A stretch of 25,125 nt of DNA, taken from Planctomycetales bacterium. GTDB lineage: Bacteria > 4484-113. Below the pieces are notes generated by a model, which was not told where the DNA came from, did no database searches, and was given only the letters and a program-made list of their open reading frames with translations. Made by a program: the position numbers and the translations under genes. The stretch is from positions 1-25,125 of the forward strand of contig JBBIJQ010000026.1 in assembly GCA_037445915.1 (NCBI GenBank), given 5' to 3'. Positions within the stretch are counted from its first letter, which is position 1, and each line of letters opens with the position of its first letter. Of the stretch, positions 1,574 through 9,788 are shown one piece after another.

Positions 1574-2971
1574 CTATGGATTTACCGTAATCGCAAGCTT
1601 GGCTTCGTCAGCAGTCACATCGCCGTCGCCGTTAAGGTCTAAGCCCATGTGGGAGAAGTAATATTCCGTTAGGCTGAGATCTGAATAATAGGTACGCTTA
1701 ACATCGCGGAATTGCACTAGCTCAAGCTGGGTTGTTCCCGGCTGTGAAGCCGTGAACGGAACAGTGACGGCGCTGCCTTGTCCAAGAACTACTTCGTTGT
1801 TTAGCCCGAGTTGGGTGACGTTAATGTCAAAGTAATTGCCATCGGACGAACCCGCACAATAGAGCAATGTCATCCCAGAAAAGAACGTGCCAGACGGAAG
1901 ATCTACCATCCAGTCGCCCGGACTTGCGAGAATAGTGCTGCTTTTCAATATTTCAGCGCCGTTCAGGTTCGCCAGCGGCGACGCGTTTTGGTAGATGTAA
2001 ACGGTGACATATACGGTCTCGCCGACGTTATAGGCTGACTTGTCGCTTAGCAAGTAGATGCTGTCCGGCAGGGCATCCGCGAACGGTTCAAGCACGGTGT
2101 AAGAAAAAGGATATGTAACGGAGGATGTCCCTATGAAGAGAGTAAAGACACCCTCGTAATCACCAGGGCTGCCCAGCACAACTTCCGGCGCCCAGTCGGT
2201 CGACGCGTTGGGAGCCGCTCCTCCGCCGAAATCCCACGACATAGAATCAGGGCTGATGCCTTGACGGACGTTCGCCGTGAACTTAACAATTGACTCCGCC
2301 CAGCCTGATTGTGGCGCAACTCCGTTGACGGCTGGAAGGCAGACCACATTGCTTAATTCGCCGGCTGATAAATCCGCGCTTACCGGCACAACCGCAGTAT
2401 ACACAAGCGCCCCGGAAGGCAGAAATACATCCCAAGCCTTGGGGAAGCTTGAATCCCCGAATGCAACGGTTCCGATGCTGCTATAAGGTCCGCCTTCATT
2501 GGCAGACGTCATGATGTAGTACTCCGTAACTTCGCTTAAGAATCCCATTGCGATTGGCGTGATATCGCTAATCCCGACTGCGCCGTCTCCGTCGCCGTCA
2601 ACCCATGACTCGAGCGCATCGTTCCCCTGGCCGTCATCGGTGTCGGCGCCAAAGTGCATCGCTATCGGCGTTATGTCGGAGACGCCGACCGCGCCGTTAA
2701 GGTCATAGTCTCCCCGGTTCACGTAAGTCCACTGGAGCTTGTAGAAGCCGCCGATTAATTGGAGCTCTAAGTCGGCAACTTTCCCTGCTGCGCCCTGCGG
2801 AGCCGCCAACGCTAGCTTCGGCGGATTATCAGCGGCTTCACGCACAGGCGAAAGGCTTGGCCCTTCACAGCCAGACAGCGTTAAGGCGAATGAGCACAGG
2901 AGCCAAAGAAGTAGAACGGCGGGTGCGCAGCGAAGAACTTTCAATCCCGCTCTCCTTGTAATTCCCATCAT
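1574..2971 (-). CDS. Secreted lipoprotein with duplicated dockerin-like Ca-binding motif, PKD-like and cohesin-like beta-sandwich domains (~465 aa)
   Basis: Start re-set to ATG 2971 (or 2968): MMGITRR..LLLWLLCSFALTLSGC lipobox; repeats GDYDLNGAVGVSDITPIAMHF and VDGDGDGAVGISDITPIAMGF; WDFGGG PKD-like motif; C-terminal YNVGETVYVTV..VTVPFTASQPGTTQLEL. The ORF-track extension to 3424 is antisense to lysS. Confidence 0.75.
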   Translation of the reverse strand: MMGITRRAGLKVLRCAPAVLLLWLLCSFALTLSGCEGPSLSPVREAADNPPKLALAAPQGAAGKVADLELQLIGGFYKLQWTYVNRGDYDLNGAVGVSDITPIAMHFGADTDDGQGNDALESWVDGDGDGAVGISDITPIAMGFLSEVTEYYIMTSANEGGPYSSIGTVAFGDSSFPKAWDVFLPSGALVYTAVVPVSADLSAGELSNVVCLPAVNGVAPQSGWAESIVKFTANVRQGISPDSMSWDFGGGAAPNASTDWAPEVVLGSPGDYEGVFTLFIGTSSVTYPFSYTVLEPFADALPDSIYLLSDKSAYNVGETVYVTVYIYQNASPLANLNGAEILKSSTILASPGDWMVDLPSGTFFSGMTLLYCAGSSDGNYFDINVTQLGLNNEVVLGQGSAVTVPFTASQPGTTQLELVQFRDVKRTYYSDLSLTEYYFSHMGLDLNGDGDVTADEAKLAITVNP

Positions 2972-2976
2972 TACAT

Positions 2977-2985
2977 AGTTTACCA
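2977..2985 (-). promoter_or_regulatory. Extended -10 box TGGTAAACT, 5-8 nt before lipoprotein start codon
   Basis: TGnTAnnnT match; no Shine-Dalgarno between box and ATG. Confidence 0.5.
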
Positions 2986-3083
2986 CGGCGGTATAACAAG
3001 GATCGTCAAACCTTCGTGCGCTTAGAGCGCCGAACCGCATTGGGCAAATGCTGATGTCCATATCACACCTTGACATTGGCAGC

Positions 3084-3114
3084 TTGCACTTCTTGTTAGC
3101 GGGCAAGCTATAAT
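3084..3114 (+). promoter_or_regulatory. Putative sigma70 promoter of lysS
   Basis: Perfect TATAAT at 3109-3114; TTGCAC at 3084-3089 (19-nt spacer, suboptimal). Confidence 0.45.
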
Positions 3115-3143
3115 CATCTTCATCCCATTGTGGGAATAACGAT

Positions 3144-4640
3144 ATGCCTAAACTGACGCCGTATGAGGAAGAGAGGCTGCCGCAGGCGCAGCCGCCGCCG
3201 GACGACCAAAGCGGGATGCGCCGCTGGAAGCTGCGCCGCCTGAAGGAAGCCGGGCGCGACCCGTTCGCGCGGGTGCGCTTTGACAGGACGCACACCATCG
3301 CCGAACTGCTGCCCGGCTTTGACGAGAAGGCCGGCCTGAAGGTGCGCCTCGCGGGGCGCATCATGGCCAAGCGCATGCACGGCAAGGCGCTGTTCTTGGA
3401 CTTGGCCGACCAGGACGGGCGCATGCAGGCCTACGCGAACGTGGACGCGCTGGGCGCGGAGGGCTTCGCGGAACTGGAAAACGCCGACCTCGGCGACATC
3501 ATCGGCGTGGAGGGCGAGCTGTTCAGAACGCGCACGGGGCAGGAATCGGTGAAGCTCGCGGCGTGGGAGTTGCTTACGAAGTCGTTGGAGCCGCTGCCGG
3601 AGAAGTGGCACGGCCTGACCGACCAGGAACTTAAATACCGCAAGCGCTACCTTGACCTCATCGCCACGCCGGAGGCGCGCGAGCGCTTCAAGATGCGCAG
3701 CAAGATGGTCGCGAAGATGCGCAACTTCCTGGACGACCGGGGCTTCCTGGAGTTTGAAACGCCGGTGCTGGAGCCGATATGCGGTGGGGCGACCGCCGAG
3801 CCGTTCATTACGCACTGGAACGCGCTGGACAACGACTTTTACCTGCGCATCGCGACCGAGCTTCGCCTGAAGCGCCTCATCGTCGGCGGCTTTGAGCGCG
3901 TTTATGAAATCGGGCGCATCTTCCGCAACGAAGGGCTGGACACGAAGCACAACCCCGAGTTCACGATGCTTGAGCTTTACTGGGCTTATACCGACTACAA
4001 CGACATAATGCAGCTAACGCAGGACATGATCGTGCACCTCTGCGACGAATGCCTCGGCACGCGCAAGATTATGTTTGAGAACAAGGAGCTTTCGTTTGAG
4101 CCGCCGTTTGCGCGCGTGCAGTTTGAGGACTTGATGAAGCAATACGCGGGCGCGGGCGTTGCGGACATGCCCGACTTGGATGCGGCGAAAGCAGTGGCGA
4201 AGAAGCTCAACATTGAATTTGATAAGTCATACGGCTACGAAAAAGTGCTTGACCGCATCTGGTCGGAGGCGGTGGAGCCGAATTTGGTGCAGCCCACGTT
4301 CGTCATGGACTACCCGGTAGCCATTTCGCCGCTTGCCAAGCGCATTCCCGACCGGCCGCAGTTCGCCTACCGCTTTGAATTATTCGCGGCGTGCGCGGAG
4401 TTGGCAAACGCGTTTTCGGAGCTAAACGACCCGGTTGAGCAGCGCATGCGCATGGAAGCGCAGATAGCGCGCGCGACCGAAGGCTACCGCGAGCTGGACG
4501 AGAATTTCCTGGACGCGCTGGAGCACGGCATGCCACCGACAGGCGGGCTGGGCGTCGGGATTGAACGGCTGCTGATGGCGCTTTTGGGCGAGCCGAGCAT
4601 CCGCGAGGTCATCGTCTTCCCGCAGCTTCGCAAGGAATAG
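3144..4640 (+). CDS. lysS: Lysine--tRNA ligase, class II
   Basis: OB-fold AGRIMAKRMHGKALF, PLPEKWHGL, YRKRYLDL, YLRIATELRLKRL, motif 2 FRNEGLDTKHNPEFT, motif 3 GMPPTGGLGVGIERL. Confidence 0.98.
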   Translation: MPKLTPYEEERLPQAQPPPDDQSGMRRWKLRRLKEAGRDPFARVRFDRTHTIAELLPGFDEKAGLKVRLAGRIMAKRMHGKALFLDLADQDGRMQAYANVDALGAEGFAELENADLGDIIGVEGELFRTRTGQESVKLAAWELLTKSLEPLPEKWHGLTDQELKYRKRYLDLIATPEARERFKMRSKMVAKMRNFLDDRGFLEFETPVLEPICGGATAEPFITHWNALDNDFYLRIATELRLKRLIVGGFERVYEIGRIFRNEGLDTKHNPEFTMLELYWAYTDYNDIMQLTQDMIVHLCDECLGTRKIMFENKELSFEPPFARVQFEDLMKQYAGAGVADMPDLDAAKAVAKKLNIEFDKSYGYEKVLDRIWSEAVEPNLVQPTFVMDYPVAISPLAKRIPDRPQFAYRFELFAACAELANAFSELNDPVEQRMRMEAQIARATEGYRELDENFLDALEHGMPPTGGLGVGIERLLMALLGEPSIREVIVFPQLRKE

Positions 4641-5504: not shown

Positions 5505-6245
5505 ATGAAGAAGGTCGTAATCCTGCAGGCGCGGATTAGTTCGTCTCGATTGCCCCGCCGCGTGCTCTTAGAGCTCGCAGGCAGACCTATTATCCATCAC
5601 ATTTTAGACCGTTTAGAAACCTCTAAGGAAGCAGACGAGATCTGCGTCGCCATCCCTGATGTCGCCGTGGACGATGAGCTTGCTGAAGCCTTGCAGGGGC
5701 GTAACATTCGCCTAGTGCGCGGCCCGGAAAACGATGTCCTGACCCGCTTTACAATCGCCGCATATGACACTCACGCCGATATCGTCATCCGCGCAACCGC
5801 CGACAACCCGCTGGTGGACATTGGTCTGATGGACGAGCAGATACGCTATATCGTCACCAATGCCGATACCGACTACGTGTTCACTAAGGGCTTGCCGCTG
5901 GGCGTTTCCACCGAGACTTTCACGCGCAAGACGCTGGACAAGCTGGAATACCTGGCGCGCACGCCGCTGATGCGCGAGCATGTGACCTACTACCTGGTTC
6001 AGAACCCAGCGCCGTTCAGCGTGGTTCACCTTAACCCTCCGCCGGAGATGGCGCACCCGGAGCTAAGGTTAACGCTGGATACGCGCGAAGACATGGAATT
6101 GTTCCAGGCGATTTACAACGAGTTCTACACTGCCGGGTCGCTGGTGAACACATCGGAAGTCGTCAGCTACTTGCTGGACAGGCCCGAGCTTATCAAGCTA
6201 AACGAGCAGGTCAGGCAAGTTCCTGCTTGCCGGGCTTTGGCGTAA
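5505..6245 (+). CDS. SpsF-like nucleotidyl(cytidylyl)transferase family protein
   Basis: ILQARISSSRLP..VL, RGPENDVLTRF, IRATADNPL, REHVT.Y, RLTLDT.ED are SpsF/CMP-sugar synthetase-family motifs; RBS AAGGAG. Confidence 0.85.
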   Translation: MKKVVILQARISSSRLPRRVLLELAGRPIIHHILDRLETSKEADEICVAIPDVAVDDELAEALQGRNIRLVRGPENDVLTRFTIAAYDTHADIVIRATADNPLVDIGLMDEQIRYIVTNADTDYVFTKGLPLGVSTETFTRKTLDKLEYLARTPLMREHVTYYLVQNPAPFSVVHLNPPPEMAHPELRLTLDTREDMELFQAIYNEFYTAGSLVNTSEVVSYLLDRPELIKLNEQVRQVPACRALA

Positions 6246-6606
6246 GCCGGCTTACCCACACGGCTGCGAAGTAAGCCAGCAAGGGCAGCGACAGCATCGC
6301 CATTTCCGCATTAAAACCCTGCGCATAACTCAGCTTGCTCAAGTCAATGCTGCGCACGAGGGCTATGTTCCCCGCATTCACCGCGAGAATCGTCCAAGCA
6401 AGCGTTAGTATCGGCGCTTTGCTGGAGCCGAAGTAATACCATGCTGCGGCGGGGAAAAAGAGCGCTGCTCCGCCAAGTATGGTGGTTAGCCACCACAGGC
6501 GAGGCGCATAGAGCCAATCCCCTCCCCAAAAGACGGCATAGTGCACCAGCGACATTGATGCCAACAGCATCACCAGCGGCGGCCCAAATCTCGTCAGCTT
6601 GCGCAC
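6211..6606 (-). CDS. Small hypothetical membrane protein (~4 TM helices)
   Basis: Four hydrophobic segments; GTG 6606 preceded at 6 nt by extended -10 TGCTATACT (6613-6621); 3' end overlaps the convergent gene by 35 nt. Confidence 0.6.
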   Translation of the reverse strand: MRKLTRFGPPLVMLLASMSLVHYAVFWGGDWLYAPRLWWLTTILGGAALFFPAAAWYYFGSSKAPILTLAWTILAVNAGNIALVRSIDLSKLSYAQGFNAEMAMLSLPLLAYFAAVWVSRLTPKPGKQELA

Positions 6607-6694
6607 GTGGGAAGTATAGCAGAGGGAACTGCTTCGTTTGACGCAATCTCCCTGCTTCAATAAAATAATGGTTCATACCATATCCGGGGGGCTG

Positions 6695-8716
6695 ATGGAC
6701 AAGTTATATATTGTGCTGCTGATAGCCGTGCTGGCGGTTCTCGCCGGCGGATTGCTCACGCTGCGCGTCCAGCAAGCCGCGCCCGGAGGCGAGAAGCTTC
6801 GTTGGGCAGGCGGCGCGCTCAGGAGGGCCGCTTTCCCCTTCGCCATCCGCGCGACCATCGCCCTGGGAGCGCTCGGCGTTCTCCTCTTCCTCTTCTTCGC
6901 ATTCATCCCCGGCTTGTCGCTGCGCCTGGCGTTCTCGGCGCTCATCGGCGTCGCAGCTTCGCTTTTTGCTGCGCACGTTTCCCTCCATGCCGGCGTCCGC
7001 GGAATCACCAATGCAGCGGCGGCTGCAACCCGCAGCCCGGCGGTGGTCGTGCGCAAGGCGATGGCGGCAGGCGCCGCCGGTGGCTTCACCGCGGCTGGAA
7101 TCGCATTGCTCGCGCTCGCGGCACTGGTCATGGTATTAGCACGCGGGGCAGAAGCCGCGGTCTTAGGCGAGATGTTGCTGCAAAACCTCGCGGGCTTCGT
7201 GCTGGGAACATGCGCAGTCGCGATAGCCTTCCGCTGCGGCGGGGGCATAGCATCGCAGGCCGCGGCCATGGCGAAAGCGTCAGTGCCAAATGATATTCAG
7301 CTTGAAAGCGACCCTGCAAAGAACCCCGCAGAGATATGCGCCATCGGATGCGAAAGCATCAGCGGCCTGGGCGGACTCGCCGCCGAATACTGCACCGTCC
7401 TTTCAGCGTCGCTGGTCGCAGCGATGATACTTGGCGTCGTGGCGCTAAAATCTTCGCTAGGCACGGCCTACCCGCTTCTAATAGTTGCAGGCGGACTCAT
7501 GGCGTCGCTGTTATCAATGCTATGGGTGTTCCGCTCATCTGCTCAAAAGACGTTGTCTGCTGCGCGCGCGGGACAGCTTGTCGCGACGGTGTTGATGCTT
7601 CTGCTCGCGCTGCTAATCACGACACTCAGCCACATCCCAACCGGCATGTTCCTCGCGGTGCTTTTCGGCGCGGCCGCAGGAGGAATCATCGCGCTGGTTG
7701 ACGATTACTACGCTTACCTCAGAGCCAAGCCCGCGGGCTCTGAAACATCCCAAGACGGCGGATGGGCATTCCTGGACGCGCTTTGGGTAGGTTCGCGGTC
7801 ATCGCTGCTTCCCGTCATCACGCTTGCCTCCGCGGCAGTAGGGGCATTCGCGGTTTGCGGCGGGTTCAACGAGCCTGCGAAAGGAATGTTCGGGCTGTCG
7901 CTTGCGGCCGTAGGCGCTGTTGCGGCGGGAGCACATAGAATCGCTTCCCTAGCTTCAGCCTGCATCCTCAAGCAGGCTGCGAGCATCGCTCCTATCGCAG
8001 GGCTTGATGAGGGCAGCATTGCCACTCTCAACACACTCCAGGAGAGCTTGCCTTGCGCCTGCCACGTGCGGGGTCATTCAGCGGGTGTCTTTGCGCTGGC
8101 AGGGCTTGGGCTTTACGCCGCATTTACCCACAGCGCGAACCTTCCCGCTTCGGACTTGAACCAGCCGCTCGTGTTTGGAGGGCTTCTCATGGGCGCGACA
8201 CTTGTGTTATGGAGCGCAGGCGGCACGATGCGGGCGACAAGGCTGGCGGCCAAGTCGCTTATCACAGAAGTTCGGCGTCAGTTCGTGGAAATACCTGGGC
8301 TTTCCGAAGGGCAGGCTGAAGGTAACTATGAGCGCTGCTCGGAGATTGCGGCGGCGCACTCTATCAGGGGGCTGGGATATGCCAGCCTTGCGTTGGTTGT
8401 GGCTGCAGTTCTGCTGGGCGGAGTATTTCGCCTGCTCAAAGTATGGCTATACGCTGGGACAAGGTCGGCCGGCGGTGGCGAGTTTGCAGCTGGGATGATC
8501 GCCGGTGCGGTGCTTCTCTCGCTAGTCATCGGCTTGATGGCGGCGGAACTGGCCGGGACGATTAGCAGCCTGCGCAAGAATGCCGGCGACACGCCTGAAG
8601 GTGCTTTCACGGCATCCCTGGGCGCGGCAATCGCAAGCGCAGCATCGCCGATGCTGCTCTTCGCTCCGATTCTCCTCGCATCCGCTGCGCTGGCGTTCGC
8701 CGGATGGCTGCGCTAA
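6695..8716 (+). CDS. Membrane-bound H+/Na+-translocating pyrophosphatase (HppA) homologue, catalytic motifs degenerate
   Basis: 673 aa, highly hydrophobic; recognisable HppA landmarks in order: FRCGGGI, DPAKNPA.I, DYY, G.FGLSLAAVG, P.VFGGLLMGA, EVRRQFVEIPGL.EG.A..NY.RC..I. Start chosen at ATG 6695 after GGGGG. Confidence 0.8.
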   Translation: MDKLYIVLLIAVLAVLAGGLLTLRVQQAAPGGEKLRWAGGALRRAAFPFAIRATIALGALGVLLFLFFAFIPGLSLRLAFSALIGVAASLFAAHVSLHAGVRGITNAAAAATRSPAVVVRKAMAAGAAGGFTAAGIALLALAALVMVLARGAEAAVLGEMLLQNLAGFVLGTCAVAIAFRCGGGIASQAAAMAKASVPNDIQLESDPAKNPAEICAIGCESISGLGGLAAEYCTVLSASLVAAMILGVVALKSSLGTAYPLLIVAGGLMASLLSMLWVFRSSAQKTLSAARAGQLVATVLMLLLALLITTLSHIPTGMFLAVLFGAAAGGIIALVDDYYAYLRAKPAGSETSQDGGWAFLDALWVGSRSSLLPVITLASAAVGAFAVCGGFNEPAKGMFGLSLAAVGAVAAGAHRIASLASACILKQAASIAPIAGLDEGSIATLNTLQESLPCACHVRGHSAGVFALAGLGLYAAFTHSANLPASDLNQPLVFGGLLMGATLVLWSAGGTMRATRLAAKSLITEVRRQFVEIPGLSEGQAEGNYERCSEIAAAHSIRGLGYASLALVVAAVLLGGVFRLLKVWLYAGTRSAGGGEFAAGMIAGAVLLSLVIGLMAAELAGTISSLRKNAGDTPEGAFTASLGAAIASAASPMLLFAPILLASAALAFAGWLR

Positions 8717-8730
8717 GGCTTGAGCGCGTG

Positions 8731-8747: not shown

Positions 8748-9788
8748 GTGAATGAAGGGAAGAAAATCCGCCTAACCGAGTACGCTTCCTGCGCAGGATG
8801 AGCCTCCAAGGTGGGTCAGGTTGACCTACGGGAGATACTCGCCGGAGTTGGCTTCTTCACGACTCCCGAAGTTTCATCAAGCATGGCGCGAGGGGATGAT
8901 GCGGGGGTCTATAGGCTGCGCGACGACCTCGCGCTAATACAGACTGTGGATGTCTTTACGCCGATTGTGGACGAGCCGCGCGACTACGGCCGCATAGCGG
9001 CAGCCAACTCGCTCTCCGACGTTTACGCGATGGGCGGCAATCCCATCACCTGCCTCGCGATAATGGCAGCGCCTGCAATGGAATTCCCAAACTGGGTAAT
9101 GAGCGAAATCCTCGCGGGCGCGAATGAAATCGCCAAGCTCGCGAGTGCGCCCATCATAGGCGGACATTCCCTGAAGCTTCGCGAACCTGCATTCGGCCTA
9201 GCCGTCACGGGCATAGCGCACCCTTCGCGCATCATCGGCACTGAAGGTGCGCAACCCGGAGACGCGCTTGTGCTTACTAAGCCGTTAGGCAGCGGCATCA
9301 TAACGACTGCCGCCAAAAGCGGAGAAGCGATTGATGCAGCGCTGAATGGCGCGATAAGTGCAATGTCGTGCCTTAACCGTATCGCCAGCGAAGCTATGCA
9401 GAACCTCACCCGCGCAGCGGCCACCGACGTCACCGGCTATGGCCTGCTCGGGCATCTCTGGCACATTCTTGAAGCATCGGGAGTGGGCGCGCGCATAAGC
9501 TTCAAAGATATACCGCCGCTGAAGGGAGCGCTGGAGTTGGCGCTCAAGTTCGTGCCCGGCGGGACTATGAAGAACTTCCAGTTCGCCTCGGCATTCGCGG
9601 ACTTTGGCTCGCTTGCCTACGAGGAAAAGATGCTCATTTGCGATGCGCAAACTTCCGGCGGCCTGCTCATTGCCTGCCCTCTCGGCGAGCTGTCAGAGCT
9701 GCTTCACGAAATCACTAGACGCGGCGAGGAAGCGTGGGTCATCGGCGAGCTTACGCAGAAAGGCGCGCCCGTTGTTACAATAAGCTGA
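8748..9788 (+). CDS. selD: Selenide, water dikinase (selenophosphate synthetase), selenocysteine-containing
   Basis: Reading from GTG 8748: MNEGKKIRLTEYASCAG-U(TGA 8799-8801)-ASKVG, the SelD active-site G(C/U)xxK motif; body has DDAGVY, QTVDVFTPIVD, AAANSLSDVYAMGG, GGHS, LTKPLG, TDVTGYGLLGH, DAQTSGGLL. Confidence 0.95.
8804..8834 (+). promoter_or_regulatory. Bacterial SECIS element
   Basis: GTGGGTCA (8811-8818)/GGT loop/TGACCTAC (8822-8829) with lower stem CTCC (8804-8807)/GGAG (8831-8834), immediately 3' of the UGA; G-starting apical loop 17 nt after UGA. Confidence 0.8.

Follow-up and report, generated by a model that had tools for sequence, protein, structure and literature searches.

Membrane-bound pyrophosphatases (mPPases) are regarded as primary pumps forming one uniform family with near-invariant catalytic Asp and Lys, and every member is named "sodium-translocating pyrophosphatase" in databases. 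Pseudoenzymes of the membrane are familiar from other families, among them the iRhom and Derlin pseudoproteases and the ABC exporters with a degenerate nucleotide site. No dead or pseudo-mPPase was described in the openly available full texts searched, including PMC9408878, PMC11210485 and PMC3198990. The mPPase dimer interface is formed by helices 10, 13 and 15, and helix 13 is involved in communication between the subunits (PMC10897367, PMC5150537).

The protein P0001 is encoded within a window of 25,125 nucleotides (the whole stretch of DNA that was analysed), and the features of its locus are collected in Table 1. In the best explanation, to which a rough probability of 0.62 is assigned, P0001 originated as an mPPase of the NF001960 type and is now a pseudoenzyme maintained by selection in a non-catalytic role. 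Like iRhoms, Derlins and the degenerate ABC exporters, which have known partners and roles, P0001 keeps its fold without catalytic residues under selection.

Table 1. Features of the P0001 locus, with positions counted from the first letter of the window.
Feature	Position	Strand	Remarks
CTP_transf_3 cytidylyltransferase	5505..6245	+	syntenic neighbour, 65-69% identity in sister genera
orf149, small membrane ORF, no family	6211..6660	-	syntenic neighbour, 43-46% identity in sister genera
Sigma-70-like promoter match TTGACG-17-TAAAAT, 10/12	6638..6666	+	29 nt before ATG; consensus match only
GGGGGG run, possible Shine-Dalgarno	6686..6691	+	3 nt before ATG 6695; function inferred from sequence
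Dead mPPase gene P0001	6695..8716, including stop codon	+	673 aa; Pfam H_PPase; fold model
Former Mg-PPi helix 5, loop 5-6 and helix 6 (residues 182-234)	7238..7396	+	K to Q; D to A, A, A, E, G; gate D to E231, E to T234
Former DAYGPxxDNAGG and DxLDxxGNTT, helices 11-12 (residues 419-461)	7949..8077	+	now LASACILKQAAS, LPCACHVRGHS
Helix 13 and loop 13-14 (residues 491-544; EVRRQFxEIPGLxEGQAEGNYERC)	8165..8326	+	best-retained part
Helices 15-16 (residues 594-667)	8474..8695	+	GGAWDNAKK, GDTVGDPFKD and gate Lys gone
Terminator-like hairpin	8709..8728	+	overlaps stop codon; 1 vs 2.4 expected, not above chance
selD (TIGR00476, 311 bits)	8811..9788	+	syntenic neighbour, 65-67% identity in sister genera

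Membership of P0001 in the family is seen in its match to the Pfam H_PPase profile PF03030 at 203.2 bits (gathering score 29.7; E 1.1e-59), which covers residues 12-619 and profile positions 1-586 of 645; a whole-genome search with the H_PPase profile gave 202.7 bits. Twelve NCBIfam mPPase equivalogs also matched, all far under their cut-offs, the best being NF001960 with 226 of the 546 bits required. The phmmer search aligned P0001 with chains of VrPPase (E 3e-28) and TmPPase (E 2.9e-21), and VrPPase (PDB 4a01, 5gpj, 6af*) is the top match among solved structures by both sequence and fold (Foldseek E 3e-25). The AF2 model of P0001 has 16 long helices (pLDDT 83.9, pTM 0.89), although the input alignment consisted mostly of active enzymes and the confidence in the fold is inflated by this. 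Comparison of the model with VrPPase and TmPPase entries (5gpj, 8b21, 4a01) in Foldseek gave TM-scores of 0.84-0.88, with the next fold below 0.2. In the ESM Atlas the clusters nearest to P0001 are H_PPase proteins, mostly of Myxococcota (score 0.92-0.93), which serve as leads only.

The active site has been eroded almost throughout. Of 35 conserved positions in the catalytic site or the ion path, chosen from the known motifs, P0001 retains 6: the RNP Asn, one of the EDD Asp residues, and from EVRRQ the Glu, both Arg and the Gln. None of the Mg/PPi-binding Asp or Lys is kept, and the 29 losses extend to all ligands on helices 11, 12, 15 and 16 as well as both nucleophilic-water Asp. As 147 of the 258 full-length homologues examined keep all 35 positions, this is not the chance divergence of a working enzyme. 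A motif of 18 residues has become GGGIASQAAAMAKASVPN, DDPRNPAVIADNVGDNVGD is replaced by SDPAKNPAEICAIGCESISG and DAYGPIADNAGG by LASACILKQAAS; GNTT is deleted or replaced (LPCA), GGAWDNAKK reads AGTISSLRK, GDTVGDPFKD reads A-SLGAAIASA, and EVRRQFxEIPG is still present. The ion gate is also altered, its Asp being Glu231, the helix-6 Glu being Thr234 and the helix-16 Lys being Pro. Relative to VrPPase, with residue numbers taken from the phmmer alignment, the equivalents of R242 and N273 are kept, while K250, D253, D257, K261, D279, D283 and D287 are Q, A, A, N, A, E and G, respectively. Judging from these residues, P0001 would hydrolyse no PPi and would not pump by the known mechanism, so that any work it performs is likely non-catalytic, as a membrane protein. 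A sequence-only reading of this DNA had described a full-length H_PPase homologue devoid of catalytic residues; the profile match, the phmmer alignment and the count of 6/35 agree with it, and each of the motif replacements it quoted is present at the aligned place. The HMM and residue comparison with VrPPase and TmPPase that it proposed gave the family match of 203 bits and confirmed the motif losses.

The ancestry of P0001 is indicated by its surroundings. The order recX, CTP-transferase, orf149, PPase, selD, DUF1844 is identical in three sister-genus genomes (G005, G007 and G008), and in G002 the upstream part of this order is kept up to where the contig ends within the PPase gene. The same-genus genome G001 (62% complete) is uninformative, as the locus is unassembled, and neither selD nor the cytidylyltransferase was found there. 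The syntenic PPases of the sister genera have all motifs intact, with NF001960 scores of 913.9 and 887.5 bits; a candidate pseudogene among the PPases, that of G006, was rejected as its frame breaks fall on runs of N. P0001 is 33-34% identical to the syntenic PPases, compared to 65-69% for the neighbouring CTP-transferase and selD, and active orthologues across genera share 66-75% mutual identity. In a quick tree with SH-aLRT support, the stem branch of the dead clade is about 4.7 substitutions per site. Compared to the NF001960 K+-dependent type, with TmPPase (4av3, 5lzq, 8b21) as its solved relative, the relationship is one of direct ancestry, with equal length and a 16-helix fold, and P0001 carries features of this lineage in the LLKxWLYxGT insert before helix 15 and in CGGFxEPAKG. 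On gene order and these sequence features, P0001 is the positional orthologue of an intact NF001960 "sodium-translocating" mPPase that has changed very fast in this genus. The canonical hppA that the sequence-only reading had suggested looking for is present elsewhere in the genome (L001, on contig C15), scoring 817 bits with Pfam and 949 with NF001953 (cut-off 783). L001 has the K at GNxxK and is an intact enzyme of another subfamily; the two proteins belong to the same family, are both full length and share 25-26% identity. The earlier label of paralogue thus holds only toward this NF001953-type hppA, as P0001 is otherwise a positional orthologue of the intact NF001960-type enzyme.

Several lines of evidence bear on selection. 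Strain variants within the gene number 25, of which 15 are synonymous and 10 non-synonymous with no indels listed, giving a pN/pS of 0.25 (binomial p 7e-4, or 9e-3 with a generous synonymous share) in a sample drawn from contigs of one study, some at a depth below 5. Two close orthologues are full length with the same ends, P0003 at 85% identity (670 aa) and P0004 at 81% (674 aa), and in substitution-only neutral simulations at the divergence of each the frame stayed open in 4/300 and 3/300 runs, falling to 0/100 at 49%. The replacements are conservative, with mean BLOSUM62 scores of +0.20 and +0.29 vs an expected -0.54, and none of 5000 resamples reaches the observed values. Indels and variability concentrate in loops, where invariance is 0.29 (loop 5-6) and 0.15 (loop 9-10) compared to 0.59-0.96 in helices, and within the dead clade the least variation is seen in helices 1-6 (82-96% invariant). 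Fold, length and membrane character are held by purifying selection. A fragment with 51% identity to P0001, P0123, shows the same derived losses. The attribution of the intact frame to selection in the sequence-only reading is upheld by the pN/pS, a neutral frame survival of about 1% and the conservative replacements. No full-length relative of the P0123 lineage was obtained in a search of low sensitivity, whose hits were all canonical enzymes scoring at most 83 bits and did not include P0001-P0004. A search of genome contigs with P0001 found no relative, and queries with P0123 and alignment A5 gave none among metagenome contigs. In P0394, from the most distant dead lineage, an Arg/Gly-rich stretch lies at the expected helix 11, which could be decay.

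The gene is intact by selection though nearly all its catalytic and ion-gating residues are gone, so the shell of the pump has probably been put to another purpose. The genus ancestor would already have possessed a second, canonical NF001953-type H+-PPase, and in this ancestor the NF001960-type copy may have lost nearly all Mg-PPi ligands, the water-activating Asp pair and the gate Glu and Lys. These losses would have arrived as a burst of substitutions; since then, purifying selection has preserved the 16-helix fold as well as protein length and membrane character. The dead protein may then act through its preserved helix 13 and loop 13-14, dimerising with itself or with the other mPPase; within the pseudoenzyme reading this is the most likely guess as to mode of action, though a tentative one. 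That helix 13 and its loop have been selectively retained is the only sequence feature favouring a dimer-based role: 13 of 15 family-invariant positions are kept there vs 59 of 173 elsewhere (Fisher p 9e-5), and the other helices of the dimer interface have no special retention (2/5 in helix 10 and 5/14 in helix 15). Against a special role, among 25 other degenerate homologues it is again the Glu and Gln of EVRRQ that persist most often (21/25 and 22/25), and the EVRRQ block may simply be a need of the fold. A complex prediction from alignments of the helix 10-16 halves (residues 352-673 of the dead protein with 334-670 of the canonical hppA) returned a score of 0.00 and a mark of 0.32, which gave no answer.

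The constraint on the gene may stem from nothing more than the cost that misfolding of a membrane protein incurs, with no function involved. P0001 would then be a relic, redundant beside the canonical hppA and decaying, with the frame and the hydrophobic helices persisting only as misfolded or truncated membrane proteins are costly while the promoter fires. The huge stem branch, an identity of 30-33% where 66-75% is normal, and the loss of all functional motifs would fit such a relic, as would a SNP density in the gene (25/2022 bp) above that of its flanks (3/741, 1/450 and 7/978), the odd N-terminal stretch of P0394 and the small size of the clade, which amounts to 3 close clusters among 5.8 billion proteins. 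It is nonetheless unlikely given the low pN/pS, the survival of the frame in just 1% of neutral simulations at the observed divergence, the conservative replacements with nearly invariant helices 1-6, and the persistence of 2 kb through species-level divergence in a 1.8-Mb genome. A more specific role, pairing with the active NF001953-type H+-PPase via helices 10, 13 and 15 as a regulatory subunit that alters half-of-the-sites behaviour, is rather improbable. The kept helix 13 and loop 13-14 favour it, as does the dimeric nature of mPPases with inter-subunit communication through helix 13, as described in PMC10897367. The helix-13 Pro is absent in the dead clade (TLVLWSA) as in the NF001953 type (MLVLLFS), with the distant P0123 having the Pro, and the genome (90% complete) yielded no soluble family I PPase, so its sole active mPPase is probably important. 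However, the partners would be 25-26% identical members of different subfamilies, helices 10 and 15 are not retained, and both enzymes are active in G002 and G004, indicating that pairing is unnecessary. The NF001953-type helix 13 is identical in genomes with or without a dead partner, so there is no co-variation; co-evolution of helix 13 with the canonical hppA was rejected, since the Pro-less NF001953 helix 13 also occurs in G002 and G004, where the partner is active.

It is very unlikely that the emptied funnel has been refitted for a new ligand, as a passive cation path, an anion or PPi sensor, or a thiol/His metal site, yet its composition has shifted in a manner consistent with this. Compared to active family orthologues, the dead proteins have fewer Asp (10-14 instead of 23-27) and more Cys (10-11 instead of 1-4); none of the 10 Cys of P0001 is changed in P0003 or P0004, with seven on inner-ring helices 5, 6, 11 and 12 (C173, C181, C215, C219, C233, C423 and C456) and C454 in the loop directly before helix 12. 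R180 and E231 are kept from the gate Arg/Asp pair, and the most invariant helices of the clade are 1-6. The Cys excess is not general in degenerate homologues (p 0.07), which also counts against a Cys/His metal site, P0123 is without the CAC motif, and the loss of the gate Glu and Lys speaks against a passive channel. It can hardly be credited that P0001 continues to act as a pyrophosphatase or pump by means of catalytic residues placed elsewhere: five acidic residues do lie in loop 5-6 and helix 6 (D200, E204, D206, E213 and E220) in addition to E231, but 29/35 positions are gone, among them both Asp for the nucleophilic water, and E204 and D206 are absent from P0003 and P0004.

The reading of P0001 as a selected pseudoenzyme can be set beside the 25 further degenerate mPPase homologues found in metagenomes (e.g., P0122, P0167, P0190 and P0216). 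In these, the Mg-PPi Asp residues are kept in 2-8 of 25, whereas the Glu and Gln of EVRRQ persist as given above and the equivalent of N273 is kept in 20/25. The P0001 clade is the most eroded here, with 5-6/35 positions compared to 9-21/35 in the others, and its gate Asp is changed where 20/25 of the others keep it. A non-catalytic use of the mPPase fold is probable; it is doubtful that a second, PPi-independent use, open to selection whenever a redundant copy becomes free, has arisen repeatedly in unrelated lineages, with a dead subunit that preserves just the helix-13 communication module acting either as an obligate asymmetric partner or regulator of the remaining H+-PPase or as a stand-alone membrane sensor or conductance in the emptied funnel. 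P0001 is a clean natural example of a dead enzyme with a conserved shell: its ancestor is known, the genes around it have not changed, and the genome carries an active copy elsewhere. For annotation pipelines, it means that PPi-based energy conservation is overstated in uncultured anaerobes. The contrast between the retained elements (helix 13, the EVRRQ loop, the Arg of helix 5 and the Asn of RNP) and the lost ones forms a natural mutagenesis map separating structural or dimer-communication residues from catalytic ones, and this map bears on the debate over half-of-the-sites coupling in mPPases.

The open reading frame itself extends from 6638 to 8716 on the forward strand, where it would encode 692 aa from a TTG; from the ATG at 6695 it encodes 673 aa with no stops. 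The alignment of MDKLYIV with the MVLVY N-termini of the orthologues supports ATG 6695 as the likely start. Promoter-like matches in the region number 3 vs 1.0 expected. Downstream, the true start of selD lies upstream of 8811, with an in-frame TGA at 8799-8801.

P0001, the 673-residue product of the dead membrane pyrophosphatase (mPPase) gene in the window, is a member of the H_PPase family by homology and fold. The sequence-only reading had taken it for a full-length but dead homologue, and this is borne out by a Pfam H_PPase match of 203 bits (residues 12-619) and a model that superposes on the solved enzymes of Vigna radiata (VrPPase) and Thermotoga maritima (TmPPase) with TM-scores of 0.84-0.88, yet only 6 of 35 conserved positions are retained. 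The same two enzymes were matched in the PDB at E 3e-28 and 2.9e-21, respectively, and no other structure scored above 0.2 against the model. The AlphaFold2 model, made from 25 sequences, has 16 long helices (pLDDT 83.9, pTM 0.89, a confidence partly borrowed from active enzymes, as these make up most of the alignment), and the predicted fold is that of an mPPase.

The 35 positions were picked by us from the six motifs and are what we take to be the conserved set; all are intact in 147 of the 258 full-length homologues examined and at least 33 in 200 of them, a sample biased by consisting of hits to a dead query. With residue numbering taken from the alignment of P0001 to VrPPase, the replacements in helices 5 and 6 are K250Q, D253A, D257A, K261N, D279A, D283E and D287G, and the ion gate is also altered, its Asp being replaced by Glu231, its Glu by Thr234 and the helix-16 Lys by Pro. 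Every motif replacement listed in the earlier reading is present at the aligned place. As judged from these alignments, P0001 lacks the residues that bind Mg-PPi, hydrolyze it and gate the ions. None of the NCBIfam mPPase equivalogs matched by the protein comes near its cut-off, the best being NF001960, the "sodium-translocating" type, at 226 versus 546 bits; as P0001 fails the catalytic and gating hallmarks as well as this cut-off, it should not be classified or annotated as a pyrophosphatase.

Features of the window around the dead gene, with the identity of relatives' proteins to the window's protein at the syntenic locus
Feature	Position	Strand	Identity	Remark
616-aa ORF	1574-3424	-		No Pfam family at E 0.001 or better
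Cytidylyltransferase gene			65-69%	
orf149 (small membrane ORF)	6211-6660	-	43-46%	No match in Pfam (E 0.001 or better) or NCBIfam
Alternative TTG start	6638	+		Would extend P0001 by 19 residues; orthologue N-termini align with the ATG instead
Sigma-70-like site, TTGACG-17-TAAAAT	6638-6666	+		Consensus match only
G-run before the P0001 ATG		+		Putative expression signal; consensus match only
P0001 gene (PPase)	6695-8716	+	33-34%	Frame open from ATG 6695 to stop 8714-8716
selD, as listed	8811-9788	+	65-67%	GTG start
selD, extended upstream	8757-9788	+		TGA 8799-8801 read as U

Orthologues with the same losses, which had been proposed as a check, do exist: the only close clusters among 5.8 billion proteins are P0002 (99%), P0003 (85%, 670 aa) and P0004 (81%, 674 aa), and all three share the losses of P0001. 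A canonical hppA, another proposed check, is likewise present elsewhere in the genome (1.79 Mb, 90% complete, 120 contigs, the window being contig C26), on contig C15; it scores 817 bits on H_PPase and 949 bits on NF001953, the H+-PPase type (cut-off 783), and retains all motifs, with Lys at GNxxK. The matches of P0001 in six genomes of family relatives (G005, G007, G008, G002, G004 and G003) reach 245-288 bits versus 107 bits for its own genome's hppA. These PPases are catalytically intact by motifs, and the two that were scanned, L004 of G005 and L007 of G004, match NF001960 at 914 and 888 bits.

In G005, G007 and G008 the locus runs recX, cytidylyltransferase, orf149, PPase, selD and DUF1844, with the PPase in the place of P0001; G002 shows the upstream part only, its contig breaking off within the PPase gene. 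Active PPase orthologues are 66-75% identical to one another between genera. Two lineage-specific marks of the orthologue group, CGGFxEPAKG and an LLKxWLYxGT insert ahead of helix 15, are still present in P0001. A quick tree places the dead clade, as one group (SH-aLRT 100), beside the family's active enzymes, with a stem of about 4.7 substitutions per site and tips of 0.05-0.15. The shared locus, intact orthologues, shared marks and tree together show P0001 to be orthologous by position to an intact pump and to have diverged very rapidly in this genus; its ancestor was an intact NF001960 enzyme. The label of paralogue given in the sequence-only reading thus has to be replaced, as P0001 is an orthologue gone dead and is a paralogue solely of the NF001953-type hppA. 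Both types are present and active in G002 and G004, the NF001960 type only is found in G005, G007, G008 and G003, and the window's genome has the NF001953 type and the dead copy. Among the dead mPPases examined here, P0001 has the cleanest ancestry and is also the most eroded.

The gene is under purifying selection, as had been supposed from its intact frame alone; strain variants, simulated frame loss, conservative replacements and variation concentrated in loops all agree on this. Variants were taken from contigs, partly at depth under 5, of four runs of one subsurface-metagenome study, one of which may be the source of the window. Of the 40 variants listed among 49, 36 were used; the four at 8996-9009 were left out as they come from other organisms' contigs touching only an 88-bp conserved part of selD. 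The dead gene holds 25 of the 36, with 15 synonymous and 10 non-synonymous changes over 555 and 1464 sites (pN/pS 0.25; binomial p 7e-4, or 9e-3 with 35% of changes allowed to be synonymous), and no indels among the listed variants; counts in the flanks are 3:0, 1:0 and 3:4. Both P0003 and P0004 span the full length and share the same ends. Neutral drift simulated from the dead gene at kappa 2 left the frame open in 4 of 300 runs for 15% amino acid divergence, in 3 of 300 for 19% and in 0 of 100 for 49%, and since only substitutions were included, adding indels would lower survival further. Where P0003 and P0004 differ from P0001, the replacements average +0.20 and +0.29 in BLOSUM62, versus -0.54 for random non-synonymous single-base changes (0 of 5000 resamplings reach the observed values). 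Variation and in-frame indels cluster in loops 5-6 and 9-10 (invariance 0.29 and 0.15; helices 0.59-0.96). P0123, a 232-residue fragment from another metagenome that is 51% identical to P0001, has the derived states RGHS and AEGQAExNYERC and has lost GGAWDNAKK and GDTVGDPFKD, indicating that the dead state predates the three close sequences. One observation speaks against maintenance: a member of its cluster, P0394 (298 residues, 94% identical to P0123), has an Arg/Gly-rich stretch at the place of helix 11, which could reflect decay through a frameshift or else a gene call that entered from the end of a contig.

Retention within P0001 is uneven. At positions where 14 or more of 15 active enzymes agree, it keeps 10 of 12 in helix 13 and 3 of 3 in loop 13-14, compared to 59 of 173 elsewhere (Fisher p 9e-5), including 7 of 25 in helix 6, 5 of 20 in helix 12 and 4 of 21 in helix 16. 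The block EV(R/K)RQFxEIxGLxEGQAExNYERC is also the best conserved at the depth of P0123. According to two papers, helices 10, 13 and 15 form the mPPase dimer interface with a communication path from helix 5 to helix 13 (PMC10897367), and closure of the pocket acts on the interfacial helix 13 (PMC5150537). Interface helices 10 and 15 of P0001 show no special retention (2 of 5 and 5 of 14), and across 25 other degenerate homologues the sites most often kept are likewise the E and Q of EVRRQ (21 and 22 of 25), so the block may simply hold the fold together. Helix 13 of the NF001953-type enzymes of G000 (the window's genome), G002 and G004 (L001, L017 and L018) reads MLVLLFS, the Pro being missing, versus LPFLF in nearly all other aligned mPPases; this Pro is also lost in P0001, P0003 and P0004.

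In the explanation we favor, P0001 would hydrolyze no PPi and pump nothing, redundancy with the NF001953-type enzyme may have permitted the loss of catalysis, and the protein would now serve a non-catalytic role. Its main competitor is a relic with no function, in which nothing but the cost of misfolding in the membrane constrains the protein. This would suit the enormous stem of the dead clade and the odd stretch of P0394, but fits poorly with the selection data and with 2 kb having been kept in a genome of 1.8 Mb. Within the non-catalytic reading, a role through helix-13 dimer contacts, with itself or another mPPase, takes roughly a third, the remainder being divided between a role that is structural alone and a funnel refitted for a ligand, a metal or conductance. 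The heterodimer first proposed, of P0001 with an active HppA, here the NF001953 type, has weak support: the retained helix 13 and the Pro lost in both paralogues are consistent with it, however the two proteins are 25-26% identical, G002 and G004 run both enzymes active side by side, and helix 13 of the NF001953 type does not co-vary with the partner's state.

The 25 further degenerate homologues, among the 258 full-length ones examined, keep at most 21 of the 35 positions and include P0216, P0167, P0170, P0215, P0213, P0256, P0190 and P0205 (within P0154-P0259). The Mg/PPi Asp residues are kept in 2-8 of the 25, and the gate Asp and N273 in 20 each. Catalytic loss seems to have started on more than one occasion around this family. 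One of the 25, P0122, a 696-aa metagenome protein with 15 of 35 positions, is a half-degenerate relative of the family's NF001960 enzyme, 54% identical to L007 and at 530.9 bits on NF001960 (cut-off 546). The nearest H_PPase clusters to P0001 in the ESM Atlas are mostly from Myxococcota. No inactive or pseudo-mPPase is described in the full-text literature searched (subscription-only papers and supplements lay outside its reach), nor in the reviews and the evolutionary study checked; "membrane pyrophosphatase" and "catalytically inactive" do not co-occur in the same literature.

The hairpin count at the P0001 stop codon is not above chance expectation. Family I soluble pyrophosphatase (PF00719) was not found in the 90%-complete genome, the control being positive in 10 of 14 reference genomes. 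A short N run (X in the translation) lies in the N-terminus of hppA (1462-1540 of contig C15), leaving its true start and first helix unreadable. The PPase L015 of G006 (C57, 3908-7942) was considered as a pseudogene as it spans three frames, yet each change falls at an N run and all motifs are intact, so the breaks come from an assembly gap. Upstream of the P0001 gene, orf149 is conserved in place across sister genera. Downstream, reading the TGA as U extends selD into "...RLTEYASCAG-U-ASK...". The N-terminal Gly-rich loop of SelD carries Sec or Cys, and this stretch looks like that loop with selenocysteine, which would make the protein a Sec-type SelD, with a start that simple ORF listing places wrongly.
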